Shown: positions 7,509 to 62,126 of the stretch, one piece after another | Layout: each line of letters begins with the position of its first letter | How positions within the stretch are numbered: the first letter of the stretch is position 1 | Assembly: GCA_030390025.1 (NCBI GenBank) | Contig: CM059431.1 | Span: 144,152,001-144,216,000, forward strand | Length of the DNA: 64,000 nucleotides | Direction: 5' to 3' | Source of the DNA: Squalus acanthias | Taxonomy: Eukaryota | The notes under the pieces: model-generated | The model's database searches: none | Told to the model about the DNA's origin: nothing | What the model saw: only the letters and a program-made list of their open reading frames with translations | Translations under genes and position numbers: made by a program

Positions 7509-8277
7509 TCATTGTTCAGTATAAACAAGGACACAAACATCGTAAACAGAAAGCTATACATTAATTATTTTCACTGCACTTTCCTGAATTTTACAACATA
7601 GTGTATGTGTAAGAATCTCTTTCTGAGATCTTCGATTCCAACTGATTCGACATTGACCCGTATTGGTGGCAGTAATTAAAACTTTAATCATCACAAGCAA
7701 GAATTACTACAATTACTGTATCTTAAGCAGCAATTTACAATGTATAATTAAGAGTTATACTACCCCGTTTCTGCCTCCGGTAATAGTCGAGTTAAGATTT
7801 GTCTGCACCCCTCTGGCCCTGCCTCAGGTCCGTATTCGCCTAGGAATGTCTCCGAGAATACTCTGGATCCTTCTCTGCCTTCCACAACTTACAACTGTCA
7901 GGACTTCCTTCTTATACACTGTAGAGGAGTTTGATTACAATCTCCCCCTGCATGGACCCGACGTTGCGGGATTTCACTAAGCTATCAAGTCCATTCTTCT
8001 CATTGTTCAGTACCATAAAGGACACAACCATCTCCAAGATAAATCAATAAATTAACTGTCTTAGCTACACTTTCATGATTTTCACTAGACTGTGCATTGA
8101 TAAATCGCCACCAGGTTAACTGGAATAAAGAGAGAAATAAATGTTACAATTATGTTAAACCACAAAATTACAATCAACCGTAATATGTGAGCAACTAAAA
8201 GCTTCGTTTCTTCCATCCCGTGAGGACAATTGCTCTTTAATTTTTTCGCGATTTTTTTAACTAACATGTCAGAAAAT

Positions 8278-8683
8278 AAGGAAATACTTGCATTTATAAA
8301 GAACCTTCGATGATTTCAGGACGTCCCAAAGCGCTTTGTAGCCACGTTTTACATTTTTGCTATTTTAATGTTAAAAACACAGCAGCCAAGATCTTTCAAA
8401 CCGCAATCTGATAATGACCAGATTATCTCTTTCAGTGATGTTGGTTCAGGGATAAATATTGGCCAGGAAACCGGGGAGAACTCCCCTGCTCTACTTCGAA
8501 ACAGTGCCATTGGATCTTTTACATCCACCTGAGAGAGCAGTTGCGGCCTCGGTTTAGCATTTCATCTGTAAAACGGCTCATCCGATAGTGCAGCTCTCCC
8601 TCAGTACAGCACTCGAGTGTCAGTCTGAATGAAACCTTCTGACTCAGAGGCGAGAGTGCTATCAACTGAGCCGCGGCTGACAC
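8278..8683 (-). mobile_element. tRNA-derived DeuSINE (SacSINE1-like), lying in the pseudogene intron
   Basis: Minus strand: GGCTCAGTTGATAGCACTCTCGCCTCTGAGTCAGAAGG head; body with GGTGGATGTAAAAGATCCAATGGCAC..GAGCAGGGGAGTTCTCCCCGG; tail AAAGCGCTTTGGGACGTCCTG..TATAAATGCAAGT. Confidence 0.8.
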
Positions 8684-8865
8684 TTTGGAAAATATAGAAA
8701 ATGATGTTAGTAGTGAAAAGGCTTGGAGATGATCGAAGGTGGTGTGGGGATCTGTAGAGTAAATGAAACTACGAGCGTGTAACGGTTAAGAGAGCAGATG
8801 GGAATAAATACGGACACATCGGATTGAAATGGATCAGAAAATATAAAAAGGAGGAAGTAACATTA

Positions 8866-9340
8866 AACAACAACAACAACTTGTATTTAGATAACGTCTT
8901 TAACGTATTAAAATGTCCCAAGGCGCTGCTCAGGAGTATTTTAAGAAAAACAATTTGACAGCGAGCTACTAAAGGATAAATTTGGACAGGCGACCAAAAG
9001 CTTGGTCAAAGAGGTAGGTTTTAAGGAGCGTTTCAAAGGAGGAAAGAGAGGTAGCGAGGTGGAGAGTATTAGGCAGGGAATCCCAGAGCTTTGGGTCTCG
9101 GCAACAGAAGGCACGAACACCAAAGGTTGAGCGATTATAATCAGGGATGCTCAAGAAGCAGAATTAAAGGAGCGCAGATAACTCGGGGTTGTGGTGCTGA
9201 AGGAGAATACAGAGATAGTGAAGGGCGCGGCCATGGAGGGATTTGAAAACAAGGATGATAATTTTGAAATCGAGGCGCTGCTTAACCGGGAGCCAATATA
9301 TGTCAGCGAGCACAGGGGTGATGGGCGAACGCGACTTGAT
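8866..9340 (-). mobile_element. L2-clade LINE 3' fragment
   Basis: (CAA)n tail at ~8866-8880. Minus-strand peptides SPITPVLADIYWLPVKQRLDFKIIILVFKSLHG and LWDSLP..SFETLLKTYLFDQAF. Confidence 0.88.
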
Positions 9341-10483
9341 GCTAGAATAAAGATTTCGGGAGAAATAACCGCCCCACCACGATAAACATCTTGACCGCCT
9401 ATCCAATGTCGGTCTGAATTGTAGAAAGTGGAAGCAGGATAGGGGAACGGGATTCTACAGCTGCAGCCACAGTAGATCGTGTGTTAAAATGTGACATGAT
9501 TCTGAACTAAATCATTTGTTTATACTTTATATTCTGAATACACATTTTAACCATCAGGATCATTTGGAAGGAAGCAGTTCTGATTGTGGCGCGCAGTCTT
9601 ATGACACACGGACTGTTGGAGCTGACTCAGATATTGACAGTGCATTTTGGAGATATACAGCGCAAGTGAGAATGCTTCGAACATTTAATTAAACTGAATG
9701 GTCAACATTACCGTGCCTTTAAATAAGAACTATTCTTACTATAGCATATGAGATTAATAATAACACACTGAATTTTCAGGGTAATACACAAGCACACATT
9801 GGTGATCTAACACCAGCTCCGGATTTAATCTGGAGATTGCTTGGGGCTCAGTATTGATAATAAATCCGGTCACCAGTGAACGTGTTACTTGTCAGACAAT
9901 AAAAGTCATTTATTGTTTGCGGAGCGAATCAATTCGCGAGAAAGCACTGCTCAAATTCACGTCCCAGCTTACCAGGGATAGAGAAGACTGTAACTGGTGG
10001 GCAGTGAACACCGAAAGGAATGTGAAGAGACAACTTTATAACAAACACGGAGAAACTCCTCATCATCTGGCAGGCACCAATAGAGATAATACAGTCTAAC
10101 ATCGCTCCATACAAAGCAATAACGGGTTAAAAGACTTACCTGGGACACCGATGGCTGTAATAATTAGGTAGAGAATTTCCGGGTAATCAATCATTGTATT
10201 TTAGTGTGAAATGTTTTCTTACAGGCCAACGTTACAGGATTCAGCCGAATTGAGACTCTGCTGGGAGTTATTCCAAATGATTAAAATTCATACAATGACT
10301 TTTGTTAGTCTTTAAATTTGAACAAACAGAAGACACCACCGGACAAATTTAGCACAAAACAATTGTATAATTTATACAGGTGATGTAGCGCGCTGTCACT
10401 CTATTTATTATAGAAGAAGGTGTGGATTCGGTCCTGCTTTAAGGTTCCATCCCAAGTGCATCTGAGATCCGAAAATTTTGCCC

Positions 10484-10562
10484 ATGTATAGACCACTCGG
10501 TGCCCCGGTGATAAAATCCGCTTACTCAATAACTGGCGTTAGTTACAGTCACTTAATAAACA
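10484..10562 (-). promoter_or_regulatory. Conserved GPCR-family promoter motif with degenerate TATA (TATACAT)
   Basis: Minus strand TTTATTAAGTGACTGTAACTAACGCCAGTTAT; GTAACTAA starts at 10546, TATA position 10490 (56 nt), the same spacing as at the other four loci. Confidence 0.65.
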
Positions 10563-10654
10563 AGGCAACATTTTCCGCTTCAGTGTCCTGGAACAAAATG
10601 GTGTAATAATGCACCTCGGTCCATAGATTCTACACTAACAGTACACAACTCTAT

Positions 10655-13322
10655 CATTACTGATGTTGACTCTACTCTAACATTACTGGTGGTGACCCTA
10701 CTGTAACATTACTGGTGGTGACACTACTTTAAGATTACTGGAGGTGAGCCTACTCTAATATTATTGGTGGTGACACTACTTTAAGATTACTGGACGTGAC
10801 CTAATTCTAACATTACTGGTGGTGACTCTACTCTAACATTACTGGTGGTGACTCTACACTAACGTTACTGGTGGTGACGCTAAACAAGCATTAGTGGTGG
10901 AGACCCAACTACATCGTTATTGGTGCTAACCCTACTCTAACATTACTGGTGGTGAACCTCTTCTAACTAAACTGATGATGACATTAATGCAACATTACTT
11001 TTGTTGACTCTACTCTAACAATACTGATGGTGAATATATTCTAAAATTACTGGCGGTGACCCTGCTATAACATTACTGGTGGTGTCCCTACTCTAACATG
11101 ACTAGTGGTGTCTCTACTTTAACATGATTGGTGGTGATTCTACTCTAACATTACTGGTGGTGACCCTACTCTAACATTGCTGGTGGTGACCCCACTCTAA
11201 CATTACTGTTGGTGACTCTACTCTAACATTACTGGTGGTGACCCTACTCTAAGATTACTGGTGGTGACTCTACTCTAACATTACTGGTGGTGACTCTGCT
11301 CTAACGTTACTGGTGGTGACCCAAAACTAACATTACTGGTGGTGACTCTACTATAACATTACTGTTGGTGACCCAAAACTTACATTACTGGTGGTGACTC
11401 TACACTAACATTACTGGTGGTGACCCAAATCTAACATTACCGGTGGTGACTCCACTCTAACATTACTGCTGGAAACCGCACCCTGACATTAATGCTGATG
11501 ACTCGGATTTAACTTTTAAATGTGGGCACGCTACTCTGACATTGCTGATTGTGACCAAACTGTAACATTACTGGTGCTGACTCAACTCTACCATAACTGG
11601 TGGTTACGATACGCTACCATTAATGTGGTGACTCTATTCTAACATTACTGGTGGTGTCCTTACTCTAACATTACTGGTGGTGATCTGACTCTATCATTAC
11701 AGGTTGTGGCGCTACTCTAACATTACTGCTTGTGACTATACCCTAACATTGCTGGGTATGACTCTACCCTCGTATTACTGGTTTTGACCTTACTCTAACA
11801 TTACTGGTGTTGACAATACTCTAGAATTGCTGTTGGTGGCCCTACTATGACATTACTAGGGTTGTGCCTACTCTAACATTACTGGTGTTGATTTTATGTT
11901 AGCGTTAATGTTGGTGTTTCTGCACTAACATTACTGGTGGTGAATCAAATCTAACCTAACTGATGATGACTTTAATGGAACATTACTGGTGCTGACACTA
12001 ATTTAACATTACTGGTGCTGATCATGCTTTAACATTACTGGTGGTGACTCGACTCCAACATTACTGGTGATGAACCTATTCTAACATTACTGATGATGAA
12101 CCTACTCAAGCATTAATGGTGATGATTCTTCTCTAACATAACTGCTGGTGACTCTAATCTAACGTTACTGGTGGTGACTATAAACTAAAATTGGTGGTGG
12201 TGCTCCTACTCTAACTTTATTGTAGGTGACTCTACTCTAATATAAATGGTCGAGATTCTACTCTAACATTACTGGTTGTCGCCCTACTCTAAAATAGCTG
12301 GTTTTGACCCTACTTTCACATTGCTGGTGGTGACACTACTCTAATGATAGAATAGGGTCATCAAGAGTAAAGTTAAATAGAATTCACAAGCAGTAATATT
12401 AGAGTAGAGTCAAAACCAGTAATGTTAGAACAGAATCATCACGAGAAAATTTAGGGCAGATTCACCACCAGTGTAAGTGTAGGGTCACAACCAGTAATGT
12501 TAGTGTCTGGACAACACAAGTAATGTTAGAATAATGCCACCACAAGTAATGTTAGAGTAGAGATACCACCAGTAATGATAGAGTAGAGCCACCAAAAGTA
12601 ATATTACTGTAGAGTCAGCACCAGTAACGGTAGAGTAGGGTCACCGCCTCTAATGTTACAGTCAGGTCAACACCAGTAAAGTTAGATTAGTTTGAACACC
12701 AGTACAAATAGAGTAGGATCACCGCCAGTAATGTTAGAGTAGGGTCACTACTAGTTATGTTAGAGTAGGGTCACCATCAGTAATTTTAGAGAATGTTCGC
12801 CACCTCTAATGTTACAGTCGGGTCAAAACCAGTAAAGTTAGATTAGATTCACCAGCAGTAACAATAGGGTAGGGTCACCACTAGTAATGTTACAATAGAT
12901 TTACGACGAGTAATGTTTGAGTAGGGACACCACCAGTATTGTCAGTGAGAGGTCACCACCAGCAATAAAACAGTAGGCTCTGCACAATTAATGTTAGAAT
13001 AGAATCACCACCAGTAACATTAGAGTAGGGTCACCACCAGTAATATTTGAGTAAGGTCGCCACCAGTAATGTTAGAATAGGGTCACAACTAGTACTGTTA
13101 GAGTAGGCTCACCACCATTAATGTTAGAGAAAGGTCACCACCTGTAATGTTGCAGTCGGGTCAAAACCAGTAAAGTTAGATTATGTTCACCACCAGTAAT
13201 GATAGGGGTGGGGGGGCGGGTCACCACTAGTAATGTTAGAGTAGGATCACTATCAGTAATGTTAGAGTCGGGTAACCACCAGTAATGTTTGAGTAGGGTC
13301 GACACTAGTAATATTAGTGTAG
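10655..13322. repeat. 26-bp satellite (CTACTCTAACATTACTGGTGGTGACC), about 100 degenerate copies, orientation flips at ~12345
   Basis: Period 26 (TGAC at 11161 and 11187). From ~12345 the array reads as the reverse complement (CCAGTAATGTTAGAGTAGGGTCACCA). Confidence 0.95.
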
Positions 13323-13325
13323 AAC

Positions 13326-16300
13326 GGGAACGGTAGCGTATTGGTAATGTCACTTGACTAGTAATCCACAGGCCTGGATTAATGATCCAGAGACGTGAGT
13401 GCAAATCCCACCACGGCAGCTGGGGAATTTAAATTCAGTTAATTAATTAAATCTGGAATAAAAAGCCAGTATCAGTAATATTAACCATGAAACTATCGGA
13501 TTTTCGTAAAAACCCATCTGGTTCACTAATGTCCTTTAGGTGAAAGAAATCTGCCGTCCTTACCAGGTCTGGCCGATATCTGAATCCAGACCCACAGCAA
13601 TGTGGTTGACTCTTAACTGCCCGCTGAAATGGTCAAACAAGTCACTCAGTTGTAACTAGCCGCTACGAAACAAAATAATAAGAATGAAACCGGACGGACC
13701 ACCCGGCATGAACCGCGGCACTGGCTACGGACACGGATACGGCACACCCAGCCCACTCAACCCTACAAAGTCCTCCTCACCAACATCTGGGGACTTGCCC
13801 CAATATTGGGAGATCTGTCCCACAGACTAGTCAAGCAACAGCCTGACATAGTCATACTCACAGAATCATACATTTCTGCCAATGTTCCGAACTCCTCCAT
13901 TACCATCCCTGGGTATGTCCTGTCCCACCGGCAGGACAGACCCACCAGGGGTGGCGGCACAATGGTATACAGTCGGGAAGGAGTGGCCCTGGAAGTCCTT
14001 AACATTGATTCTGGACCCAATGAATTCTCATGGATCCAAGTAAATTCAAACCTCCTGCTGATTGCCACCTACCGCCCTCCCTCAGCTGATGAAACAGTAC
14101 TCCTCCATGTTGAACACCACTTGGAAGAATCACTGAGAGTAGCAAGGGCACAGAATGCACTCTGGGTGGGGGAATTCAATGTACATCACCAAGCGTGGCT
14201 CGGTAGCACCACTACTGGCCGAGTCTTGAAGGACATAACTGCGAGTCTGGGCCTGCGACAGGTGGTGAGTGAACCAACACGAGGGAAAAACCTACTTGAC
14301 CTCGTCCTCACCAATTTACCTGTCACAGATGCATCTGTCCATGGCAGCTGTGACCACTGCACAGTCATTGTGGAGCCGAAGTTCCATCTTCACACTGAGA
14401 ATACTCTCCATCGTGTTGTGTGGAACTACCACCGTGCTAAATGGGATACATTCAGAACAGATCTAGCAGTTCAAAACTGGGCATCTATGAAGGCGCTGTG
14501 GGGCAGCAGCAGAATTGTATTTCACCACAATCTGTAACCTCATGGCCCGGCATATCACTCACTCTAGCATTACCACCAAGCCAGGGGACCAAACCGTGGT
14601 TCAACAACGAGTGTAGAAGAGCATGCCAGGAGCAGCACCAGGCGTACCTAAAAATGAGGTGCCAGCCTGGGGAAGCTGCAACACAGGACTACATGCATGC
14701 TAAAAAGTGGAAGAAGAATGCTATAAGACAGGGCTAAGCGATCCCACAATCAATACATCAGATCAAAGCTCTGCAGTCCTGCCACATCCAGTCGTGAATG
14801 GTGGTGGACCATTAAACAAGTAACGGGAGGAGGAGGCTCCAAGAATATCTGCATCCTCAATGATGGTGGAGCCCAGCACCTGAGTGCAAAAGACAAGGCT
14901 GAAGCGTAAGCAATCAACTTCAGCCATAAGTGCCAAGTGGATGATCCATATTGGCCTACTCCCGAGGTCCCCACCATCACAGAAGCCAGTCTTCAACCAA
15001 TTCGATTCAGTCCACGTGATATCAAGAAACGGCAGAACGCACTGGATATAGCAAAGGCTATGGGGCCCGAAAACATCGCGGCTATCGTGCTGAAGGCTTG
15101 TGCTCCAAAATTAGCTGCGGGTCTAGCTAAGCTTTTCCAGTACAGCTACAACACTAGCATCTATCCGACAATATGGAAAACTACCCAGGTATGTCCTGTC
15201 CACAAAAAGCAGGACAAATCCAACTCGGCCAATTAACGCCCCATCAGTCTACTCTCAATCATCAGCAAAGTGATGGAAGGTTTCATCGACAGTGCTATCA
15301 AGCAGCACTTACCCACCAATTACCAGCTCACTGATGTCCAGATTGGGTTCCGCAAAGACCACTCAGGTTCCGCAAAGACCACTCGGCTCCCGACCTAATT
15401 ACAACCTTGTTCCAAACATGGACAATGGAGCTGACTTCCAGATATGAGATGAGAGTGCCTGCCCTTGACATCAGGGCAGCATTTGAACGAGTGTGGCATC
15501 AAGGAGCCCTAGTAAAAATGAAGTCATTGGGAATCGGGTGAGGGGGCTAAATCTTAAATGGCTGGAGTCATACCTAGTGCAAAGGAAGATGGCGGCGTTG
15601 TTGGATGTCAAACATCACAGGCCCAGGACATCGCAGCAGGAGTTCCTTAGGGCAGCGTCCAAGGCCGAACCATCTTCAGCTGCTTCGTCAATGACCATCC
15701 CTCCATTATAATGTCAGAAGTGGGGAAGTTCGCTGATGACTGCACTGGCTTCAGTGCCATTCGCAACTCCTCAGATAATGAAACAGTTCATGCCCACATG
15801 CAACAAGACCTGGTCAACGTTCAGGCTTGGGCTGATAATTGGCAGGTAATATTCGCGCCACACAAGTGACAGGCAATTACTATCTCCAACAAGTGAGCTT
15901 CTAACCAACGCCCCCTGACATTCAACGGCATTACCATCGCCGAATGCTCCACCATTAATATACTGGGGATCTTCATTGACCAGAAACTTAATACTATGGC
16001 AACAACAGCAGGTCAGAGGCTGGCTATTCGACGGCGAGTGTCTCACCTCCTGACTCCCCAAAGCCTTTCCGCCAACTGCAAGGCGCAAGTCAGGAGTGTG
16101 ATGGAACACTCTGCACTCGCCTGGATGAGTGCAGCACCAACAACACTCAAGAAGCTCGACACCATCCAAGACAAAGCAGCCCGCTTGATTGGCAACACAT
16201 CCACTACCTTAAACATTCACCCCGTCCACCAACATGCGCGCCCTGACTGCAGTGGGTACCGTCTACAAGATGCACTGTAGCCAAGGCTTTTTCCGCAGCA

Positions 16301-16612
16301 CCTCACAAACTAGCGACCTCTACCACATAGAAGGACAAGGGCAGCAGGCGCATGGGAACACCACCACATCCAAGTTCCCCTCCAAGTCACACACCATCCT
16401 CACTTGGAAGTATATCGCCATTGCGTTATCGTCGCTGGCTCAAAATCCTGGAACTCCCTCCCTAATAGCACTGTGGCATTACCTTCACCACACTGACTGC
16501 AGCTTTTCAAGAAAGCTGCTCACCACCAGCTTCTCAACGTCAACTACAGATGGACAATAAATACTGGCCATGCCAGCGTCGCCCACATCCCATGAACGAA
16601 CGTAAAAACAAA
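13326..16612 (+). mobile_element. Degraded CR1/L2-group LINE (APE + RT) preceded by a tRNA-derived SINE-like head
   Basis: 13326-13660 is a tRNA-SINE-like head and body. APE motifs PDIVILTESY..IPGYVLSHRQDRPTRGGG and VGEFNVHH; RT motifs KAMGPENI and KFADD. 3' end CAATAAATACTGGCCATGCCAGCGTCGCCCACATCCCATGAACGAA followed by an A-rich tail. Confidence 0.88.
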
Positions 16613-16619
16613 CAGAGCA

Positions 16620-18665
16620 GCACTGTCACATCTAGTGTTAGTGTAGGGGTACCACTAGTACCGGAGGTGCACGATCGGCTCTTTTATAATTTTAGGGTTA
16701 CGACTATTAGGAGAGGTGCACGGTTAGAATTAATGTCAGTGTAGTGACACCAATATGACTATAGGAGCACGACAATATCGAGTGGAAGTTGATCGCACCA
16801 CCAGCACCAGACGTGTCTGGTCATCTCTTGCATAAGTGCAGTGTACCACTAGTACCATAGCAGCACGATCAGCTCTCGTGTAAGTGTAGCGTTCCACCAG
16901 TACCTGAGGAGCCCGGCCAACTGTACAGTAAGAGTAGTGTTCCACGAGTACCTAAGGAGCACGGTCAACTGTAGTGTAAGTGTAGGCTTCCACTAGTACC
17001 CGAGGAGCACGGGCAACTGTAGTGTAAGTGTAGGGTTCCACTAGCACCCGAGGTGCACGGTCAACTGTAGTGTAAGTGTAGGGGTCCACTAGTACCTGAG
17101 GAGCACGGTCAATTGTAGTGTAAGTGTAGGGTTCCAGAAGTACCTGAGGAGCACGGTCAAATGTAGTGTAAGTGTAGGGTTCCACTAGTACCTGAGGAGC
17201 ATGGTCAAATGTAGTGTAAGTGTAGGGTTCCACTAGTACCTGAGGCTCACGGTCAACTGTAGTGTAAGTGTAGCGTTCCACTAGTACCCGAGGAGCACGG
17301 TCAACTGTAGTGTAAGTGTAGCGTTCCACGAGTACCTGCGAAGCACGGTCAACTGTAGTGTAAGTGTAGGGTTCCACTAGTACCTGAGGAGCACGGGCAA
17401 CTGTAGTGTAAGTGTAGCGTTCCACTAGTACCCGAGGAGCACGGTCAACTGTAGTGTAAGTGTAGCGTTCCACGAGTACCTGCGAAGCACGGTCAACTGT
17501 AGTGTAAGTGTAGGGTTCCACTAGTACCTGAGGAGCACGGTCAACTGTAGTGTAAGTGTAGCGTTCCACGAGTACCTGCGGAGCACGGTCAACTGTAGTG
17601 TAAGTGTAGGGTTCCACTAGTACCTGAGGAGCACGGTCAAATGTAGTGTAAGTGTAGCGTTCCACGAGCACCTGAAGAGCACGGTCAACTGTAGTGTAAG
17701 TGTAGGGTTCCAGGAGTACCCGAGGAGCACGGTCAAATGTAGTGTAAGTGTAGAGTTCCAGGAGTACCTGAGGAGCACGGTCAAATGTAGTGTAAGTGTA
17801 GGGTTCCAGGAGTACCTGAGGGGCACGGTCAAATGTAGTGTAAGTGTAGGGTTCCACTAGTACCCGAGGAGCAAGATCAACTGTAGTGTAAGTGTAGGGT
17901 TCCACTAGTACCTGAGGTGCACGTTCAACTGTAGTATAAGTGTAGCGTTCCAGGAGTACCTGTGGAGCACGGTCAGCTGCAGTGTAAGTGTAGGGTTCCA
18001 CTAGTACCTGAGGCTCACGGTCAATTGTAGTGTGAGTGTAGGGTTCCACTAGTACCTGAGGAGCACGGTCAACTGTAGTGTAAGTTTAGGGATCCACTAG
18101 TACCTGAGGAGCACGGTCAACTGTAGTGTAAGTGTAGGGTTCCACGATTACCTGAGGAGCACGTCAACTGTAGTGTAAGTTTAGGGATCCACTAGTACCT
18201 GAGGAGCACGGTCAACTGTAGTGTAAGTGTAGGGTTCCACGATTACCTGAGGAGCACGTCAACTGTAGTGTAAGTGTAGGGTTCCACTAGTATCTGAGGA
18301 GCACGGTTAACAGTAGTGTAAGTGTAGGGTTCCACGAGTACCTGAGGAGCGCGGTCAACTGTAGTTTAAGTGTAGGGTTCCACTAGTACCTGAGCAGCAC
18401 CTTCAACTGTAGTGTAAGTGTAGGGTTCCACTAGTACCTGAGGAGCACGGTGAACACTGGTGCAAGTGTAGCGTACACTAATAACGAAGGATACATCTAG
18501 TTTAAGTGTAGGATTACCACTAGTGCCAGTGGAGCACGTTCACATCTATTTACGTGTAGAGTTACAAGTATTGCAGGAGGAGCACGCTGACTTCTAGTAT
18601 AAGTTACCCACTTAGCGGAGGGGCACGGTCACATCCAGTATAAGTGTAGGGGTAACACCACACTT
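16620..18665. repeat. 48-bp minisatellite (CTAGTACCTGAGGAGCACGGTCAACTGTAGTGTAAGTGTAGGGTTCCA); about 33 homogeneous copies at ~16890-18465 with degenerate flanks
   Basis: 48-bp periodicity is directly visible and produces the 16-aa repeat ORF 16952-18049. Confidence 0.97.
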
Positions 18666-18679
18666 AAACTAGGATGTAA

Positions 18680-20772: not shown

Positions 20773-21046
20773 GGACTGACTGTGCTCATCACCAGTATTG
20801 AAGGATTTGTTTCACCGCCTGTTCTGAAGGAGTTGGTGCACTAGGTGAATCATGGGCAGGATCAGGACGAATATTGCAAGGTGAGCTACCTTCATCACGC
20901 CTGTAGGAATAGAGTCAGAGCTAGTACTGGAAGATTTCACTTTCCACTTGTAAACAATGTTTCAATTTTTTAACTTTACTATAATAATTTCACCTATTTC
21001 TCTTAATCTGACGTATCAGACAAGAAAAACAACTTACCTGAGTCTA

Positions 21047-21125
21047 TTTGTTAAATGACTGTAACTAATGCTAATTATGATTTAACCTGATTGACACCTT
21101 GGAGGATTGAAGTGAGTATAAATAT
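21047..21125 (+). promoter_or_regulatory. Putative GPCR promoter: conserved motif plus TATA box
   Basis: TTTGTTAAATGACTGTAACTAATGCTAATTAT; GTAACTAA at 21061, TATAAAT at 21117, 87 nt before the ATG. Confidence 0.7.
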
Positions 21126-50572: not shown

Positions 50573-51979
50573 TCACAGAATCAGTGTCCAGGGAGATTTC
50601 ACAACATTCTTCAGCTCTTCTCTGAATTTCCTCTGGGTCGCTGCATAAATACACGGGTTTAGACAGGAGCTCAAATGCTTCAGCATTGCTCCGCTTTCAG
50701 TGGCGATATATCCAGGGTCTGTGCGGTCACCTCGGTAATAAGTCGTGTTTGTCAGTCTGGTAGTTACAAAACTCACGGCAGTTGTGAGCCACAACAATAT
50801 AAAACTGCCCGATAAAGTGAACAGTAAAATGATGGATTTCCTTCTGATCTCCATCTCTGGATCGCTCTGATTTTCACTCCTGTGGCCCCGGAGTCCCCTG
50901 CAGGCTCTACTTGCCACTAAAATACGGCTGACTGTCAAACTATTACATAAGACAATTAATGTAAAGGGAATACAAACGACCGAGGCAGAATAAAACCAGA
51001 CATACGCTACACCAGGAGGTGAGGAAAAAAAAGCCCCACTATTCCGGCAGCCCCACTGCACCTTGTTAATTATTTGTTCCGGTTCAAATGCAAACAATAC
51101 GGGGATGTCCTTTAAAAAAATTAGGATCGAGACGTTTGTTATAACCGCGGCCGCAGTTCTCTCGGTGCAATACTTTGTTCTAAACTTCTGGCAGCAGATA
51201 ACGACAAATCGGTCAAATGTGAAGGAGACGGTGAACCAAACAGACAAATCGATGGTGACAGCAGTCATGTATAGAATGAACTTACACACGGGAGTGTGGG
51301 ACAGGAATGAAAGTGGAAAGTGATAACTGAATATATAATACATCATTACATTGAAGATCATGACCAGTAGATCTGCTGTTGTCATGGCCACCATGTAGAC
51401 AGAGATACACTTGGAAAGTCCGCAGTTTCCTAAGGAGAGAATCACCATTGTCACCAAATTCGCTGTAAGAAACAGAGAGGAGAGAAATAAATTTCCAGTG
51501 TCTGTTTTGAAATATATATGGAGAAAACTGTTGAGAGCATTTTGCTCCATTCAGTGTGATTATCTACACGGAGCAGTGTGAGAACAGGATTAGTATTGGA
51601 GCCATTACCTGGGAAACCCACCCCCACATTTTAATTAGCTGCTGCAGCGCTCACTCTGCACGGGGGGACAAGACGGTCCGGAAATCCGCTAAAATCCTTG
51701 TGTTGGAGCTCCAAAGAACATTGTAACATCAGTGATATTATCGAATTAAGGGAAACTTGGAAAGTGCGGACACCCGGTTCATTAGTTGGTTCCAGTTACT
51801 ACGGACTGTGTAATGTTGACATCTAGAAATCACGTTACATTAGGCAACAGGCTGCATGAAGAGGAGACAGTTAACCCCGATTAACAACAAACAGGTTACA
51901 ATGGCTCACCGGGGACACCGACAGCTGCGAGGATCGGGTAGTAACTCTCCTTGATTAGCAATATAGTTTATTGACCCAT
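50573..51979 (-). pseudogene. GPR139/GPR142-like GPCR, mirror copy of 21204-22624, with nonsense mutations (exon 1 51979-51910, exon 2 51462-50573)
   Basis: Exon 1 reads ATG GGT CAA TAA (stop at codon 4, plus-strand 51968-51970; CAA in the left copy). A second AGA-to-TGA change at 50573-50575 removes the last 5 aa. Splice sites are intact and exon 2 is otherwise open. Confidence 0.85.
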
Positions 51980-52057
51980 TTTCTGTGAGAATGGATGAAT
52001 TCTGCAGGAGATGAAAGACTCTGACTGGCGCAGGGCTGAAGCAATGGAAGGGAACCT

Positions 52058-52136
52058 ATATTTATACTCACTTCAATCCTCGAATGTGTCAATCAGGTTA
52101 AATCATAATTAGCATTAGTTACTGTCATTTAACAAA
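52058..52136 (-). promoter_or_regulatory. Putative GPCR promoter: conserved motif plus TATA
   Basis: Minus strand TTTGTTAAATGACAGTAACTAATGCTAATTAT; core starts at 52122, TATAAAT at 52066 (56 nt). Confidence 0.68.
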
Positions 52137-52409
52137 TAGACTCAGGTAAGTTGTTTTTCTTGTCTGATACGTCAGATTAAGAGAAATAGGTGAAATTATT
52201 ATTGTAAAGTTAAAAAATTGAAACATTGTTTACAAGTGGAAAGTGAAATCTTCCAGTACTAGCTCTGACTCTATTCCTACAGGCGTGATGAAGGTAGCTC
52301 ACCTTGCAATATTCGTCCTAACCCTGCCCATGATTCACCTAGTGCACCAACTCCTTCAGAACAGGCGGTGAAACAAATCCTTCAATACTGGTGATGAGCA
52401 CAGTCAGGC

Positions 52410-53078
52410 CGCACTAGAGGTGGCCGTCTCCTCCGGTATAGTGGTAGCCTACACTTACACTAGAGGTAACCGTCTTCTCTGGTATAGTGGTACTCTACAT
52501 TTACGCTAAAGATGACCATGCTCCTGCTGTTGTTCTGGCACCCTACACTTACAGTAGAGTTCAATGTGGTCCAATGGTAATAGTGGTAGCACTACACTGA
52601 CACTAGTATTGACCGTGCTGCTCAAGTACTAATGCTAACCTTGCAATTACACTAGATGTGCGTGTGCTCGACCTGCACAAGTGGTGCCCGTACACTTACA
52701 CTAGGGATGACCGTTCTCCACCGGTACTAGAAGTATACCTGCATTTGAACTTGTGGTTACCGTGCCGCTCCGCTATTAGCGGTGCTTTGCAATTACACTA
52801 GAGGTGACCATGTTCCTCGTGCACTCATAGTATCTCTGAACTTACACTAGAGGTAACCTTGTCCCTTTGCTATTAGCGGTGCTCTGCAGTTGCACTAGTT
52901 GTGACCGTGCTCCTCTTGTACTAGTAGTACCCCTAAACCTACACTAGAGTTGAGCGTGTTCCTACAGTAATAGTCGTATCGCTGCAATAACACTAGCGTT
53001 GACCGTGCACCTCCAGTATCAGTTGCACCCCTAACATTATAATAGAGCTGATTGTGCTCTTCCAATGATAGCACACTA
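52410..53078. repeat. Degenerate 48-bp satellite (mirror of 20105-20772)
   Basis: Recurring TACACTTACACTAG and TGACCGTGCTC motifs. Confidence 0.85.
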
Positions 53079-54490
53079 GAACATAGGAACATAATAAATA
53101 GGACTGGGGTAGTCCATACCACCCTTCGAGCCTGCCCCGCCATTCAATAAGATCCTGGCTGATATTCGACCTCAACTTCACTTTGCCGCCCGGTCCCCAT
53201 ATCCCTTGATTCCCTTAGAGTCCATAACCGGTCTATCTCCGCCTTGAATATACTCGACGGCTGAGTATTCACTGCCCTCTGGGGTAGAGAATTGCAAAGA
53301 TTCAAAATCCTCTGAGTGAAGACATTTCTCCTCATGTCAGTCTTATATGGCCGACTCCTTATCCTGAGGCTATCCCCATATTTCTAGACTCTCCAGCCAG
53401 GGGAAACAGGCTCTCAGCATCTATCCTGTCAATCCCCCTAAGAATATTATATGTTTCAATGAGATCACCTCTCATTCTTCTAAACTATAGAGAGTATAGG
53501 ACCAATCAACTCAATCTCTCCTCATAGGACAACTGCCTCATCCCAGGAATCAATCTAGTGAACCTTTGTTGCACCTCCTCTAATGCCAGTATATCCTTTC
53601 TTAGAAATGGAGACCAAAACTGTACACAGTGCACAAGGTGCGGTCTCCCACCAAAGGCCTGGACAATTACAGCAGGATTTCCTTACTCTTGTACTCCAAC
53701 CCCCTTGGAATAAAGACCAACATGCCATTTGCCTTCTTAATTGCTTGTTCTGCCTGCATGGTAACTCTTTCTGTTTCCTGTACGAGGACACTTAAATCTC
53801 TCTGAACAGCAACATTTAATTTTTTCTCACCATTTCAAAATATTAATATTTTCTGTTCTTCTTACCAAATTGAATTTCCTTCCATTTCCCCAAATAATAC
53901 TCCAGCTGCCATGTTCTTGCCCACTCTCTATACCTGGCTATATCACTTTGCATACTCTGTGTGTCCTCATCACATCTTACTTTCCAACCTAGTTCGGTAC
54001 CGCCACAAACTTGGATACATTACATCCATCTAAGCGATTAATATAGATTCCAAATAGCTGAGTCCCCAGAATGATCTAGCTGAAAATGTCCCGTTTACTC
54101 CTGCTGTCTGTTTTCTTTCCTTTATTAATCCTCAGCTCAGGCTAATATATTACACCCAACCCCATGATCCCTTATGTAGCGTAACAACCTTTCTAATGGC
54201 ACCTATTCGAATGCCTTTTGAAAATCGAAATATACTTCATCCACTGGTTCCCCTTTATCAATCCTGTTAGTTATATCCTCAAATAACTAATACATTTGTA
54301 AATCACGATTTCCCTTTCATAAAAGCATGTTGATTCTGCCTAATCATTTTATAATTTTCTAAGTGCTCTGTTACCACTTCCTTAATAATGATTTCCAGCA
54401 TTTTCCCCACGATGTATGTCAGGCTAACTGACCAGTCGTTCCCTGATTTTTCTTTCCATACTTTCTTGCATAGCGGTGGTACATTTGCTA
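53079..54490 (-). mobile_element. CR1 fragment (mirror of 18680-20104)
   Basis: GAACATAGGAACATA tail at ~53079; reverse-complement match to the left copy. Confidence 0.9.
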
Positions 54491-54509
54491 CCTCTTGTTA
54501 CATCCTAGT

Positions 54510-55260
54510 TTAAGTGTGGTGTTACCCCTACACTTATACTGGATGTGACCGTGCTCCTCCACTAAGAGTGGTAAGTTATACTAGATGTCAGCGTGCTCCT
54601 CCTGCACTACTTGCAACTCTGCACTTAAATAGATGTGACCGTGCTCCACTGGCACTAGTGGTAATCCTAGACTTAAAGTAGATGTATCCCTCGTTATTAG
54701 TGTACCCTACACTTGCACCAGTGTTTACCGTGCTCCTCAGGAACTCGTGGAACCTTACACTTACACTAGTTGACCGTGCTCCTCAGGTACTCGTGGAACC
54801 CTACACTTACATTACAGTTGACCGTGCTCCTCAGGTACTAGTGGAAACCTACACTTACACTACAGTTGACCGTGCTCCTCAGGTACTAGTGGAACCCTAC
54901 ACTTACACTACAGTTGACCGTGCTCCTCAGGTACTCGTGGAACCCTACACTTACACTACAGTTGACCGGGCTCCTCAGGTACTAGTGGAACGCGACACTT
55001 ACACGAGAGCTGATCGTGCTGCTATGGTACTAGTGGTACACTACACTTATGCAAGAGATGACCAGACACGTCTGGTGCTGGAGGTGCGATCAACTTCCAC
55101 TCGATATTCGCGTGCTCCTATAGTCATAGTGGTGTCACTACACTGACATTAATGTTAACCGTGCACCTCCCCTAAAAGTCGTAAGCCTAAAATTATAAAA
55201 GAGCCGATCGTGCACCTCCGGTACTAGTGGTACCCCTACACTAACACTGGATGAGACAGT
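54510..55260. repeat. 48-bp minisatellite with only about 6 homogeneous copies (~54715-54990)
   Basis: TTGACCGTGCTCCTCAGGTACTAGTGGAACCCTACACTTACACTACAG units. Confidence 0.93.
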
Positions 55261-55269
55261 GCTTCTCCG

Positions 55270-58200
55270 TTTTTTTTATATTAGTTCATGGGCAAGGCCA
55301 GCATTTATTGCCCATCTGTAGTTGCCGTTGAGAAGGTGGTGGTTGAGCCGCCTTCTTGAACCGCTGCAGTCAGTGTGGTGAAGGTAATCCCACAGAGCTA
55401 TTAGGGAGTGAGTTCCAGGAGTTTGAGCCAGCGACGATAAAGCAATGGTGATATACTTCCAAGTGAGGATAGTGTGTGACTTGGGAGCGGAACTTGGATG
55501 TGGTTGTGTTCCCATGCGCCTGCTGCCCTTGTCCTTCTAGGTGGTAGAGGTCGCGGGTTTGTGAGGTGCTGCCGAAAAAGCCTTGGCTACAGTGCATCTT
55601 CTAGAAGGTGCACACTGCAGTCAGGGCACACATGTTGGTGGACGGGGTGAATGTTTAAGGTGGTGGATGTGGTGCCAATCAAGCGGGCTGCATTTTCTTG
55701 GATGGTGTCGAGCTTCTTGAATATTGTTAGTGCTGCACTCATCCAGACGACTGCAGAATATACAATCACACTCCTGACTTGCGCCTTGCAGATGGAGAAA
55801 AGGCTTTGAGGAGTCAGGAGGTGAGACACTCGCCGCAGAATAGCCAGCCTCTGACCTGCTCTTGTTGCCATAGTATTAATGTGGCTGGTCCAGTTGAGTT
55901 TCTGGTCAATGGAGATCCCCAGTATATTAATGGTGGAGCATTCGGCGATGGTAATGCCGTTGAATGTCAGGGGGCGTTGGTCAGAAGCTCACTTGTTGGA
56001 GATATTAATTGCCAGTCACTTGTGTGGCGCGAATGTTACCTGCCACTTATCAGCCCAAGCCTGAACGTTGACCAGGTCTTACTGCATGTGGGCATGAACT
56101 GTTTCATTATCTGAGGAGTTGCGAATGGCATTGAAGCCAATGCAGTCATCAGCGAACTTCCCCACTTCTGACCTTATAATGGAGGGATGGTCATTGATGA
56201 AGCAGTTGAAGATGGTTCGGCCTTGGACGCTGCCCTGAGGAACTCCTGCTGCGATGTCCTGGGCCTGTGATGTTTGACATCCAACAACGCCGCCATCTTC
56301 TTTTGTGCTAGGTATGACTCCAGCCATTTAAGATTTCGCCCCCTCACCCGATTCCCATTTTTACTAGGGCTCCTTGATACCACACTCGTTCAAATGCTGC
56401 CTTGATGTCAAGGGCAGTCACTCTCACCTCATATCTGGAAGTCAGCTCCTTTGTCAATGTTTGGAACAAGGCTGTATTTTGGTCGGGAGGCGAGTGTTTT
56501 TTGCGGAACCCAATCTGGGCATCAGTGAGCAGGTTATTGGTGAGTAAGTGTTGCTTGATAGCACTGTCGATGCTACCATTCATCACTTTGCTGATGATTG
56601 AGAGTAGACTGATGAGGCGGTAATTGGCCGAGTTGGATCTGTCCTGCTTTTTGTGAACAACCATACCTGGGTAGTTTTCCACATTGTTGGATAGATGCTA
56701 GTGTTGTAGCTGTACTGGAACAGCTTGGCTAGACCCGCAGCTAATTTTGGAGCACAAGCCTTCAGCATGATAGCCAGGATGTTTTCGGGGCCCATAGCCT
56801 TTGCTGTATCCAGTGCGCTCAGACGTTTCTTGATATCACGTGGAATGAATCGACTTGGCTGAAGACTGGCTTCTGTGATGGTGGGGACCTCGGGAGTAGG
56901 CCGATATGGATCATCCACTCGGCACTTCTGGCTGAAGTTGATTGCAAACGCCTAATCCTTGTCTTTTGCACTCAGGTGCTGGGATCCACCATCATTGAGG
57001 ATGGGGATATTCTTGGAGCCTCCTCCTCCCGTTAGTTGTTTAATGGTCCACCACCATTCACGACTGGATGTTGCAGGACTGCAGAGCTTTGATCTGATCC
57101 ATTGATTGTGGGATCGCTGAGCCCTGTCTTATAGCATTCTTCTTCCGCTTTTTAGCATGCATGTAGTCCTGTGTTGCAGCTTCTCCAGGTTGGCACCTCA
57201 TTTTTAGTTACGCCTGGTGCTGCTCCTGGCATGCTCTTCTACACTCCTTATTGAACCAGGGTTTGGTCCCCAGGCTTGGTGGTAATGGTAGAGTGAGTGA
57301 TATGCCGGGCCATGAGGTTACAGATTGTGGTGGAATACAATTCTGCTGCTGCTGATGGCCCACAGCGCCTCATGGATGCCCAGATTTGAGCTGCTAGATC
57401 TGTTCTGAATCCAACCCATTTAGCACGATGGTAGTGCCACACAACACGATGGAGTGTATTCTCAGTGTAAAGGTGGGACTTCGTCTCCACAATGGATGTG
57501 CGGTGGTCACAGCTGCCAATGCTGTCATGGACAGATGCATCTTCGACAAGTAGATTGGTGAGAACGTGGTCAAGTAGGTTTTTCCCTCGTGTTGGTTCAC
57601 TCACCACCTGTCGCAGGCCCATACTGGCAGTTATGTCCTTCAAGACTCGGCCAGCTGGGTCAGTAGTGGTGCTACCGAGCCGCTCTTGGTGATGGACATT
57701 GAAGTCCCCCAGCCAGAGTGCATTCTGTGCCCTTGCTACTCTCAGTGCTTCTTCCAAGTGGTGTTCAACATGGAGGAGCACTGATTCATCAGCTGAGGGA
57801 GGGCGTAGGTGGCAATCAGCAGGAGGTTTCCTAGCCCATGCTTGACTTGGAGCCATGAGACTTCATTGGGTCCAGGGTCAATGTTAAGAACTCCCAGGGC
57901 GACTCCTTCCCGACTGTATACCATTGTGCCGCCACCACTGGTGGGTCTGTCCTGCCGGTGGGACAGGACATACCCCGGGATGGTGATGGAGGAGTTTGGG
58001 ACATTGGCGGAAATGTATGATTCTGTGAGTATGAGTATGTCAGGCTATTGCTTGACTAGTCTGTGGGACAGCTCTCCCAAAATTGGAACAAGTCCCCATA
58101 TGTTGGTGAGGAGGACTTTGTAGTGTTGACTGGGCTGGGTGTGGCGTTTCTGTGTCCGTAGCCGCTGCCGAGGTTCATGCCGGGTGGTCCGTCCGGTTTC

Positions 58201-58558
58201 ATTCTTATTATTTTGCTTCGTGACGGCTTGTTACAACTGAGGGACTTGCTCGGCCATTTCAGCGGGCAGTTAAGAGTCAAAAACATTACTGTGGTCTGGA
58301 TTCACATATAGGCCAGACCAGGTAAGGATGGCAGATTTCCTTCCCTAAAGGACATTAGTGAACCAGATGGGTTTTTACGACAATCCGATAGTTTCATGGT
58401 TACCATTAATGATACTAGCTTTTTATTCCAGATTTAATTAATTAACTGAATTTAAGTTCCCCAGCTGCCGTGGTGGGATTTGAACTCACGTCTCTGGATC
58501 ATTAGTCCAGGCATGTGGATTACTAGCCAAGTGACATTATCAATACTGTACCGTGCCC
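55270..58558 (-). mobile_element. SINE-headed APE+RT LINE (mirror of 13326-16612)
   Basis: Minus-strand ORFs with LGDFNVHH, NLLDHVLTN, GSCDH, ALDIKAAFERVW and GVPQGS..FINDHP..KFADD. B-box-like GTTCAAATCC at ~58475-58484 on the minus strand. Confidence 0.88.
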
Positions 58559-58560
58559 GT

Positions 58561-61500
58561 TCTACTCTAATATTACTGGTGTCGACCATACTCTAACATT
58601 AATGGTGGCGAACTTACTCAAACATTTTTCTGGTGAACCTACTCTAACATTACTTGTGGTGAGCCTACTCTAACAGTACTAGTTGTGACCCTATTCTAAC
58701 ATTACTGGTTGCGACCTGACTCAAACAATACCGGTGGTGACCCTACACTAACATTACTGGTGATGAGTCTATTCTAACATTACTAATGGTGATACTACAT
58801 TAACATTACTGGTGGTGACTCTACTCTAACATTACTGGTGGTGACTCTACACTAACATTACTGGTTGTGACCCTATTCTAACATTACTGGTGGTGACCCG
58901 TTTCTAACGTTACTGATAGTAATGCTACTCTAACATTACTAGTGGTGACCCTACCCTATTATTACTGGTGGTGAACCTAATCTAACATTACTGGTTTTGA
59001 CCCGACTGCAACATTACAGGTGGTGACCATTCTCTAACATTAATGGTGATGAACCTAATCTAACAGTACTAGTTGTGACCCTATTCTAACATTACTGGTG
59101 GCGACCTTACTCAAATATTACTGGTGGTGACCCTACTCTAACATTACTGGTGGTGATTCTATTCTAACATTAATTGTGCAGAGCCTACTGTTATATTGCT
59201 GGTGGTGACCCCTCACTGACAATACTGGTGGTGTCCCTGCTCAAACATTACTCGTCGTAAACCTACTGTAACATTACTAGTGGTGACCCTACCTTATTAT
59301 TACTGGTGGTGAATCTAATCTAACTTTCCTGGGTTTGACCCGACTGTAACATTACAGGTGGCGACCATTCTCTAACATTACTGATGGTGACCCTACTCTA
59401 ACATAACTTGTAGTGACCCTACTCTAACATTACTGGCGGTGATCCTACTCTATTTGGAGTGGTGTTCAAACTAATCTAACTTTACTGGTGTTGATCTGAC
59501 TTTAACATTAGAGGCGGTGAACATACTCTAACATTAGAGGTGGTGAACATACTCTAACATTAGAGGTGGTGAACATACTCTAACATTAGAGGTGGTGACC
59601 CTACTCTAACGTTACTGGTGCTGACTCTACAGTAATATTACTTTTGGTGGCTCTACTCTATCATTACTGGTGGTATCTCTATTCTAACATTACTTGTGTT
59701 GTCGAGACACTAACATTACTGGTTGTGACCCTACACTTACACTGGTGGTGAATCTGCCCTAAATTTTCTCGTGATGATTCTGTTCTAACATTACTAGTTT
59801 TGAATCTACTCTAATATTACTGCTTGTGAATTCTATTCAACATTATTCTTGATGACCTTATTCTATCATTAGAGTAGTGTCACCACCAGCAATGTGAAAG
59901 TAGGGTCAAAACCAGCAATTTTAGAGTAGGGCAACAACCAGTAATGTTAGAATAGAGTCACGACCATTTATATTAGAGTAGACTCACCAACAATAATGTT
60001 AGAGTAGGATCACCATCACTAAAATGAGTGCATAGTCACCACCAGTAACGTTAGAGTAGAGTCACCAGCAGTTATGTTAGAGAAGAATCATCACGATTAA
60101 TGCTTGAGTAGGTTCATCATCAGTAATGTTAGAATAGGTTCATCACCAGTAATGTTGGAGTCGAGTCACCACCAATAATGTTAGAGCAAGATCAGCACCA
60201 GTAATGTTAAATTAGTGTCAGCACCAGTAATGTTCCATTAAAGTCATCATCAGTTAGGTTAGATTTGATTCACCACCAGTAATATTAGTGAAGAGACACC
60301 AACATTAACGTTAATATAAAATAAACACCAGTAATGTTATAGTCGGCACACCCCAAGTAATGTCATAGTAGGGCCACCACCAGCAATTCTAGAGTATTGT
60401 CACCACCAGTAATGTTAGAGTAAGGTCACATCCAGTAATGCGAGGGTAGAGTCATACCCAGTAATGTTAGAGTATAGTCACCAGCAGTAATGTAAAAGTA
60501 GGCACACCCCTAGTAATGTCATAGTAGAGCCACCACCCGCAATTCTAGAGTATTGTCAACACCAGTAATGTTAGAGTAAAGTCAAAAGCAGTAATTCTAC
60601 GGTAGAGTCATACCCAGTCATGTTAGAGTATAGTCACCAGCAGTAATGTTAGAGTAGCGCCACCACCTTTAATGATAAAGTAGAATCACCAACAGTAACG
60701 TTAGAGCAGCGTCACCAACAGTAATGTTAGAGTAGGGACACCACCAGTAATGTTAGAATAGAGTCACCACCAGTAATGTTAACGTATCGTAACCACCAGT
60801 TATAATAGAGTTGAATCAGCACCAGTAATGTTGCAGTTTGGTCACAATCAGCAATGTCAGAGTAGCATGCCCACATTTAAAGTTAAATCCGAGTCATCAG
60901 CATTAATGTCCGTGTGTGGTTTCCAGCAATAATGTTAGAGTAGAGTCACCACCAGTAATGTTAGATTAGGGTCACCACCAGTAATGTTAGTTTTGGGTCA
61001 CCACCAGTAATGTTAGAGTAGAGTCACCACCAATCATGTTAAAGTAGAGACACCACCAGTCATGTTAGAGTAGGGGCACCACTAGTAATGTTATAGTAGG
61101 GTCACCGCCAGTAATGTTAGAATAAATTCACCAACAGTATTGTTAGAGTAGAGTCAACAAAAGTAATGTTGCATTAATGTCATCCTCATTTTAGTTAGAA
61201 GAGGTTCAACAACAGTAATGTTAGAGTAGGGTCAGCACCAATAACGAGTTAGTTGGGTCACTACCAGTAATGCTTGTGTAGAGTCACCACCAGTAACGTT
61301 AGTGTAGAGTCACCACCAGTAATGTTAGAATAGGGTCACCTCCAGTAATCTTAAAGTAGTGTCACCACCAGTAATGTTAGAATATGGTCACCTCCAGTAA
61401 TCTTAAAGTAGTGTCACCACCAGTAATGTTAGAATAGGGTCACCATCAGTAATCTTAAAGTAGTGTCACCACCAGTAATGTTAGAATAGGGTCACTTCCA

Positions 61501-61615
61501 GTAATCTTAGAGTAGTGTCATCACCAGTAATGTTAGAGTAGGGTCACCACCAGTAATGTTAGTGTAGGGTCACCACCAGTTTTGTTAGAGTACAGTCAAC
61601 ACCAGTAATGATAGA
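58561..61615. repeat. 26-bp satellite, orientation flips at ~59868 (mirror of 10655-13322)
   Basis: Same unit and the same flip junction (TTCTATCA|TTAGAGTAG). Confidence 0.95.
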
Positions 61616-61705
61616 GTTGTGTACTGTTAGTGTAGAATCTATGGACCGAGGTACATCATTACACCATTGGTGTTTCAGGACACTGAAGCGCAAAATCTTG
61701 CCTTT

Positions 61706-61782
61706 TTTGTTAAGTGTCTGTAACTAACGCCAGTTATTGTGTAAGCGGATTTTCTCACCGGGGCACCGCGTGGTCTATAAAT
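61706..61782 (+). promoter_or_regulatory. Putative GPCR promoter: conserved motif plus TATA
   Basis: TTTGTTAAGTGTCTGTAACTAACGCCAGTTAT; GTAACTAA at 61720, TATAAAT at 61776 (56 nt). Confidence 0.65.
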
Positions 61783-62071
61783 GGGTAACATTTATGGATC
61801 TCAGATGCACTTGGGATGGAACCTTAAAGCAGTACAGGATCCACACCTTCTTCTATAATAAATAGAGTGACAGCGCGCTACATCACCTGTATAAATTATA
61901 CAATTGTTTTGTGCTAAATTTGTCCGTTGGTGTCTTCTGTTTGTTCAAATATAAAGACGAACAAAAGTCGTTGTATGAATATTAAACATTTGGAATAACA
62001 CCCAGCAGAGTCTCAATTCGGCTGAATCCTGTAACGTCGGCCCGTAAGAAAACATCTCACACTAAAATACA

Positions 62072-62126
62072 ATGACAGATTACCTGGAAATTCTCCACCT
62101 AATTATTACAGCCATCGGTGTCCCAG
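62072..62126 (+). CDS. Exon 1 of a GPR139/GPR142-like GPCR locus; exon 2 not in the window, functional status unknown
   Basis: MTDYLEILHLIITAIGVP followed by phase-1 donor CCAG|GTAAGT; mirror of 10194-10140. Confidence 0.7.

Follow-up and report, generated by a model that had tools for sequence, protein, structure and literature searches.

Sharks have large, keen noses and, as published, a small repertoire of receptors to serve them; the locus described here raises the question of whether another family of receptors serves the shark nose as well. The locus is a window of 64,000 nucleotides of Squalus acanthias DNA (assembly GCA_030390025.1, contig CM059431.1, positions 144,152,001 to 144,216,000; the whole stretch that was analysed), which holds five loci (A, A', B, C and C') of a two-exon gene that encodes a G-protein-coupled receptor (GPCR) of class A. 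The reading that we favor, at a probability of about one half, is that these genes would be part of a chondrichthyan-wide repertoire of class A GPCRs by which olfactory sensory neurons would detect odorants or pheromones. (Some sensory role for the family is a broader proposition, and one that we consider probable.) The family is real, large and apparently undescribed, and is among the largest GPCR families of any vertebrate, whatever the tissue; its function we infer. New here are a count by two motifs, a sister gene, spliced transcripts, and the finding that the satellite is local and the promoter common to the whole family.

The size of the family rests on two degenerate DNA motifs, built from 45 representatives and counted by exact match in the 3.71-Gb genome. 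They give 1,815 and 1,581 matches (0 for the reversed controls), so that the family is neither small nor single-copy-like. Three protein searches yield at least 129, 150 and 118 scored loci among 4,629, 4,213 and 4,196 first-look candidates. From contig C1 to C7:142.1 Mb, 55 loci are common to motif lists of 100 and 84; the union of the two motifs comes to ~2,400 loci and a mark-recapture estimate, which is based on 129 loci only and is biased low, to ~2,800. Clusters lie on C1, C3, C6, C7, C12, C21, C26, C29 and C30 and on many unplaced contigs. Exon 2 is open at 21 of 30 motif-picked loci (~70%; 19 passed by script and two, L145 and L154, added by eye, with exon 1 outside the check and 19 of the 30 loci coming from one C1 array), and 26 of the 129 rows of the first protein search have an internal stop. 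We estimate the intact-looking genes at 1,500-2,000, with a cautious floor of ~1,000. A haplotype artefact is rejected as the origin of the count: a partner at least 99% identical exists for only 4 of 22 unplaced loci, so that inflation looks limited. (Eight further loci on four unplaced contigs, all ~99% alike, could be haplotypes or a young array.) With ~2,400-2,800 loci, segmental duplication and many pseudogenes, the lineage-expanded birth-and-death family proposed in the initial annotation is borne out. Class C loci, V2R included, number at most 93 matches of 140 candidates, ~70 of them on C5. (The ~70 are cysteine-rich exons at 2.4-5.9, 9.8-10.7 and 45.2-45.7 Mb of that contig, a V2R/OlfC cluster of about twice the published catshark count.)

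The closest named relatives are GPR139 and GPR142, each found once in this genome (on C18 and C24, respectively); with shark GPR139 as query these two are the only ones of 141 scored matches at E <=1e-15. In a 35-row IQ-TREE rooted on arthropod receptors, GPR139 and GPR142 form one clade (100/100) apart from the family, which counts at least 1,815 loci, so that the initial annotation was correct in holding the family to be something other than GPR139 itself. The family joins a single-copy amphibian/sturgeon gene (100/99), the support for the family alone being weaker (89/64), and a 128-row FastTree is concordant. Two chimaera proteins fall in different subfamilies (98/95 and 84/88), implying that the expansion began before the chimaera/elasmobranch split, which dates to ~400 million years ago. 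At E <=0.001 a database search matches 2,095 clusters. Sharks account for every one of the 120 that are listed, most of which bear the automatic name 'probable GPR139', and the nearest among the matches listed (77-80% identical) are from Heptranchias and Pristiophorus. Thirty representatives that were looked up place members in sharks, skates, stingray, manta, electric ray and Callorhinchus. The best reading of these relationships is that the family would go back to a single gnathostome gene related to GPR139. The genome also has two more GPR139-like genes in single copy (L073, G000:C17:37413763, and L074, G000:C9:120526322), the one on C9 having no close relative in the trees built. A bamboo-shark model (P0134, P0285) fuses a family receptor to other sequence, with a cluster mate labelled RING-type, and is probably an annotation merge.

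Both intact genes, A and B, score above cut-off for Pfam 7tm_1, and a Pfam search of the two at E 0.1 returns that profile only (no OR, TAAR, V1R or V2R family profile). An alignment of 90 distinct open exon-2 proteins (median identity 54%, down to 43%) was reduced to 33 representatives at 85%, all 33 of which have D2.50, R3.50, N7.49 and Y7.53. Nine inner segments have a mean entropy of 0.43-0.95 bits, against 1.30 for the inner part of transmembrane segment (TM) 4 and 1.30-2.39 for the outer segments, and the ratio of nonsynonymous to synonymous differences (pN/pS; 37 disjoint close pairs) is 0.30 in the inner half and 0.58 in the outer half. By these measures the inner, G-protein-facing half is shown to be under purifying selection, with the pocket and outer loops strongly diversified; the outer value, being below 1, shows relaxed or mixed selection there rather than demonstrating positive selection. 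A variable pocket with a conserved signalling face, in a large clustered family with birth and death, is the pattern of a chemoreceptor-type repertoire, and because the family is large, its inner face constant and its pocket variable, it can be thought of as a device to tell many ligands apart via one pathway. In the L126-L144 head-to-tail array (G000:C1:98.9-99.7 Mb) both disulfide cysteines linking TM3 and extracellular loop (ECL) 2 are lost; block variation at the top of TM3, ECL2 and ECL3 suggests gene conversion.

The predicted model of a 78%-identical relative (P0002; mean predicted local distance difference test score 87.7) has seven helices and helix 8, with TM1 starting at residue 5. 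The protein thus has almost no extracellular N-terminus, as initially proposed, and because the tail is almost absent, the helical pocket must be where ligands bind. Among solved structures, GPR139 chains are the only relatives at E <1e-4 (best E 3e-5). GPR139 is reported to require F109, H187, W241 and N271 for its response to tryptophan and phenylalanine (PMC5430874). The hint that the family might share these ligands is not supported: of the GPR139 pocket W6.48 alone is kept (31 of 33 representatives), while equivalents of F109, H187 and N271 occur in 4, 10 and 2 of 33, R6.51 is absent from the six commonest residues at its position, and N7.39 and most other pocket residues are lost as well. 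D3.37, in 28 of 33, is specific to the family.

A 29-bp promoter motif is present at all five loci with 0-1 mismatch and has 108 exact matches in the genome (0 for the reversed control). The fixed position claimed for it holds as far as the TATA box (~72 bp) but not on to the ATG (154 bp in A and B, 363 bp in the C type). Across subfamilies the order is constant, which supports the shared-promoter part of the co-regulation claim: TGTTTGTTYA (a box that we take to be FOX-like) ~72 bp before TATA, then CTGTAANTAA, a homeodomain-like YTRATTR, an O/E-like site and TATA. For scoring, 32 of 35 promoters were anchored on TATA alone (four, probably mis-anchored, were retained). The O/E consensus TCCCYNGRGAR (PMC3247239), sought with <=2 mismatches 6-30 bp before TATA, is found in 20 of the 32 promoters, where 1.6 would be expected, and a set of 16 non-redundant promoters has it in 8, against an expected 0.7; a homeodomain site lies just upstream of the O/E-like site in 15 of 32 (6.2 expected) and 10 of 16 (3.2 expected). 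Against same-window shuffles two O/E consensus forms reach z 7.3 and 7.4, and seven other motifs z <=4.2. A composite pattern has 55 genome matches against 1 for the control (of three that were opened, two have a family exon 1 and one has no gene), and a shorter pattern has 70 against 12. The boxes are retained while the flanks decay. One subfamily has the homeodomain variant TAATGA, which is described as the homeodomain site of OR enhancers (PMC8213819), and mouse OR choice is reported to be driven by adjacent Lhx2 and Ebf sites (PMC5608512). All of this suggests that the promoter includes candidate homeodomain, O/E-like and TATA sites, as at mouse odorant-receptor genes, and by that analogy suggests activity in olfactory neurons. 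A perfect homeodomain site, EBF palindrome and TATA also occur together at L176 (G000:C18:38876032), with no family exon nearby and only transposon remains around; this could be an enhancer, the promoter of another gene or chance.

Four of nine sequencing runs (none of the runs listed is on record as RNA) were compared with gene B at 80% likeness. Two of them, X1 (156 contigs) and X2 (174 contigs), cover the exons with promoter depth zero and intron depth none or <3, and their joints skip the 422-nt intron. A third, X7 (16 contigs), has one intron-skipping joint at depth 3.4; in X3 promoter and intron are covered and none of these joints is among those listed. These RNA-like runs thus show that many paralogues of a related species are transcribed, with splicing that agrees with the gene model. 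(Long intron-spanning open reading frames beginning MEQNALN or APQELIT are ruled out as N-termini, the splice joints fitting the two-exon model.) In catshark the olfactory neurons are reported to form a near-continuous layer, all Go- and TRPC2-positive, in which labelling for the V2R co-receptor marks 5.94 cells/mm and each of four V2R probes marks 0.7-1.1 (PMC10116579). If somata measure ~10 um, the known receptors would explain roughly a tenth of these neurons, and most would lack a known receptor.

The proposed olfactory repertoire would operate as follows. Factors of the Lhx2 and EBF types would recognize the homeodomain and O/E-like sites, in the manner of mouse odorant-receptor genes, with each neuron selecting one or a few genes; each kind of pocket would have its own waterborne ligands (peptides or other polar compounds of small size, with no special place for Trp or Phe); and all receptors would signal via a single conserved transducer, for which the Go/TRPC2 route of microvillous neurons in sharks is plausible. 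The family itself is renewed by segmental duplication and pseudogenization. A bolder version, held tentatively and at somewhat less than even odds, makes this the main odorant-receptor family of cartilaginous fishes, evolved independently from a neuropeptide-receptor lineage >400 million years ago, with one to two thousand working genes expressed one per neuron by Lhx2/EBF logic as in mammalian ORs, and missed by surveys limited to OR, TAAR, V1R and V2R.

A number of points weigh against the olfactory assignment. EBF and homeodomain factors are active also in B cells and many neurons. The O/E-like sites depart from the consensus (TCAC frequently replaces TCCC, and those of A and B each have 3 mismatches) and are degenerate, the window for the scan was picked after the motif was seen, and the promoters are homologous rather than independent. 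V2R genes do not appear to share the promoter: the full pattern has no match on C5, and the short pattern has one match in the V2R cluster, with no exon after it. The pN/pS of the outer half of the receptor is below 1. X1 and X2 are from another species, RNA by guess only and unlabelled as to tissue. V2Rs have been judged the main carriers of shark olfaction (PMC10116579), and among the top 50 genes of a catshark brain-plus-nose library, in the portion of the source available, there is no GPCR (PMC11979771); sparsely expressed genes would not be expected in such a list.

A sensory repertoire might instead reside outside the nose, in MRGPR-like somatosensory neurons, taste buds, solitary chemosensory cells of skin or gill, or gut endocrine cells. 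Family size and divergence pattern fit this just as well, and GPR142 has its role in cells of gut and islets. Cartilaginous fishes lack MAS1-related receptors (PMC8455134), leaving a niche that the family could fill. The layout of homeodomain, O/E and TATA sites is nevertheless the known olfactory signature. Moreover, the pre-TATA window shows no enrichment of the octamer (POU2F3-type) motif (z -0.45), and a non-olfactory sensory site is judged unlikely. Birth and death, a variable outer face, clusters on small and unplaced sequences, and the fact that EBF1 is a B-cell factor would all suit an immune repertoire of leukocytes or mast-like cells that senses microbial or damage peptides; ~2,000 genes are, however, far above the known leukocyte GPCR families and the outer half shows no arms-race excess, making an immune role less likely still.

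The genes might also encode receptors for neuropeptides or hormones, acting in brain or gonad as in the ancestral lineage of GPR139 and FMRFamide receptors: GPR139 is the nearest solved relative, the nearest named invertebrate protein is FMRFamide-receptor-like, and the sister gene of amphibians, present once, is 66-74% conserved. But a few endogenous ligands give no reason for pocket variants in the thousands, and with most of the GPR139 pocket lost (R6.51 and N7.39 included) this is improbable. Alternatively, amplification might be mostly neutral, the genes being passengers of duplication-prone, satellite-rich DNA with few of importance, as might be supposed from a window that is an inverted duplication with three of five copies dead, from stops in most C-type copies and from the occurrence of near-identical copies. 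Such a process does not account for the constraint on the inner half, nor for subfamilies shared with chimaera and rays, spliced transcripts of paralogues or promoter boxes kept in decaying flanks; A and A' differ at 28 codons (~97% DNA identity) against 92% identity in the duplicated flanks. Neutral amplification is already disfavored, and very improbable.

The window itself (see the table) is spanned by an inverted duplication of ~26 kb with arms 90-93% identical (~92%) around a 4-kb central spacer. The initial annotation saw five cassettes; all five loci are present, but since the window is one inverted duplication, A/A' and C/C' are copies and there are only three lineages, which rules out five independent cassettes. 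The tiny exon 1 ending G-V-P with a phase-1 GT donor is found at all five, as described. Two loci had been called intact, two dead and one unresolved; A and B are intact and two are dead as stated, and C', the fifth, proves to be frameshifted by 1 nt in an exon 2 beyond the window (from G000:C7:144217537), giving two intact and three dead. The C-type subfamily (L043-L060; long 5' leader, 55-nt exon 1) has stops, frameshifts or truncations at most of its 18 loci; in catshark it has intact tandem copies.

Table. Duplication arms, gene parts, promoters and satellite arrays of the window, numbered from its first nucleotide
Feature	Position	Strand	Remarks
Left duplication arm	8438..34692	+	contains C and A; self-BLAST, pairs with 63841-38602
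Gene C exon 2 remnant	8103..8119	-	acceptor kept at 8119, first codons, then ~3.3-kb deletion including exon 2; pseudogene
Gene C coding exon 1	10140..10194	-	55 nt, ATG 10194, GVP end, phase-1 donor
Gene C promoter box	10529..10557	-	
26-bp satellite upstream of C	10648..13322	.	orientation flip ~12342
48-bp satellite block	16615..18651	+	diverged dimer of 26-mer
Degenerate 48-bp satellite immediately upstream of A	20165..20771	+	
Gene A promoter	21050..21122	+	FOX-like/CTGTAACTAAT box 21050-21078, homeodomain-like TGATTG, O/E-like site (3 mismatches), TATAAA 21117
Gene A coding exon 1	21204..21273	+	70 nt, ATG 21204; intron 446 nt
Gene A exon 2	21720..22624	+	intact class A GPCR when spliced, 324 residues
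48-bp satellite relic upstream of B	35043..35125	+	83 bp, 72% identity, E 2e-8
Gene B promoter box	35418..35446	+	
Gene B coding exon 1	35572..35641	+	70 nt, ATG 35572; intron 422 nt; joined to exon 2 in paralogue transcripts
Gene B exon 2	36064..36983	+	intact class A GPCR when spliced, 329 residues
Right duplication arm	38602..63841	-	contains A' and C'; self-BLAST
Gene A' exon 2	50573..51462	-	reading frame open
Gene A' exon 1	51910..51979	-	ATG 51979; pseudogene, TAA at codon 4
Gene A' promoter box	52105..52133	-	
Degenerate 48-bp satellite upstream of A'	52412..53013	-	
48-bp satellite block	54526..55247	-	shorter mirror of 16615-18651
26-bp satellite upstream of C'	58562..61617	.	orientation flip ~59870
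Gene C' promoter	61709..61781	+	box 61709-61737, TATAAA 61776
Gene C' coding exon 1	62072..62126	+	ATG 62072; exon 2 3.4 kb further on, frameshifted; pseudogene

The satellites upstream of the genes are of one family, as first proposed (the 48-mer is a diverged dimer of the 26-mer, score 87 against <=83 in 2000 shuffles), but B retains merely a relic. The point at which orientation changes is the same within both 26-bp arrays, and the flip is therefore older than the 26-kb duplication; L038 and L121 have this flip too. The 30 loci closest to B have exon 1 (30/30), promoter motif (28/30) and satellite (29/30, often a short relic), and, being 81-100% identical, share these features by descent. 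Farther afield, 40 upstream regions of distant subfamilies were compared (2 single-copy controls, 9 without and 29 with exon 1), and the satellite lies within 3 kb at 3 of the 29 promoters. An exact satellite 43-mer has 891 genome matches; among the first 100 places listed, none is on C7 before 137.1 Mb or on C1-C6, which hold family clusters nonetheless. Because of these two distributions the satellite, as far as sequence comparison goes, is a marker and passenger of one subclade; it is ruled out as a regulator of the whole family, and the notion of a family-wide design element is given up. Other subfamilies (L113, L114, L115, L116, L158, L161, L163, L104, L105) have unrelated tandem repeats of 18, 35, 42 and 89 bp at 0.4-2 kb upstream of the promoter (figures without a background rate).

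Between the genes are decayed CR1- and L2-type long interspersed elements (193-2120, 13656-16557, 18685-19873, 33312-34811 and 38041-39968). A near-perfect 200-bp palindrome at 7274-7473 (96% self-complementary) is probably an insertion of the miniature inverted-repeat or short interspersed element type. Downstream of the C deletion, 6863-8100 is degenerate and resembles open reading frames, in part duplicated (7181-7274 resembles 7919-8012); a Pfam search of the three + strand frames of such stretches in 6863-7977 gives no match.

Cartilaginous fishes have been described as poor in GPCRs (PMC8455134), a statement overturned outright by a family that outnumbers class C in the same genome by a factor of 20-30. 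The shark repertoire as published comprises ~34 V2Rs, every other family having 4-9 genes (PMC10116579), and whether sharks own only a small olfactory repertoire is now directly checkable against these genes. A literature search on GPR139 and GPR142 in sharks and relatives, with most subscription papers outside it, found no paper on the family; the main text of PMC11979771 has 0 mentions of GPR139. The single-copy sister in Xenopus and axolotl offers an entry for functional work.

GPR139 and GPR142 are class A receptors responsive to Trp and Phe (PMC5430874). The family resembles them in that its best structural match is GPR139, in having W6.48 and no P7.50, and in an acceptor of the same phase before the TM1 Asn (the phase-1 TM1 intron agrees with shark GPR139 on the acceptor side only; exon 1 of the C17 gene ends GIP). 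It differs in identity (20-25% and 18-25%, respectively), in copy number and in a pocket that does not conserve F109, H187, N271 and R244. The amphibian/sturgeon 'probable GPR139' (for example XP_069092602.1; 20 amphibian clusters and 1 sturgeon cluster listed) shares with the family its DPEM..RR.S loop motif, at 32-34% identity, but has one conserved cluster per species listed instead of thousands of copies. GPR210A and GPR210B, GPR139/142-like subtypes of bony fish and coelacanth, belong to the same wider family and probably include the C17 gene (62% to coelacanth); unlike the present family they are not expanded, and the survey that describes them includes, in the portion available, no shark (PMC6504862). 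The 'probable G-protein coupled receptor 139' entries of RefSeq and UniRef for sharks, rays and Callorhinchus are this same family, named by best match only. From mammalian OR, V1R and TAAR genes, as these are described in the portions of PMC3247239, PMC5608512 and PMC8213819 available, the family, known here from sequence, differs in ancestry (7tm_1 profile only), in an intron inside TM1 and in two extra upstream boxes. It is like them in being a large clustered family with many pseudogenes, a compact coding region, a very short N-terminus, a variable pocket and a promoter with candidate homeodomain, O/E-like and TATA sites.

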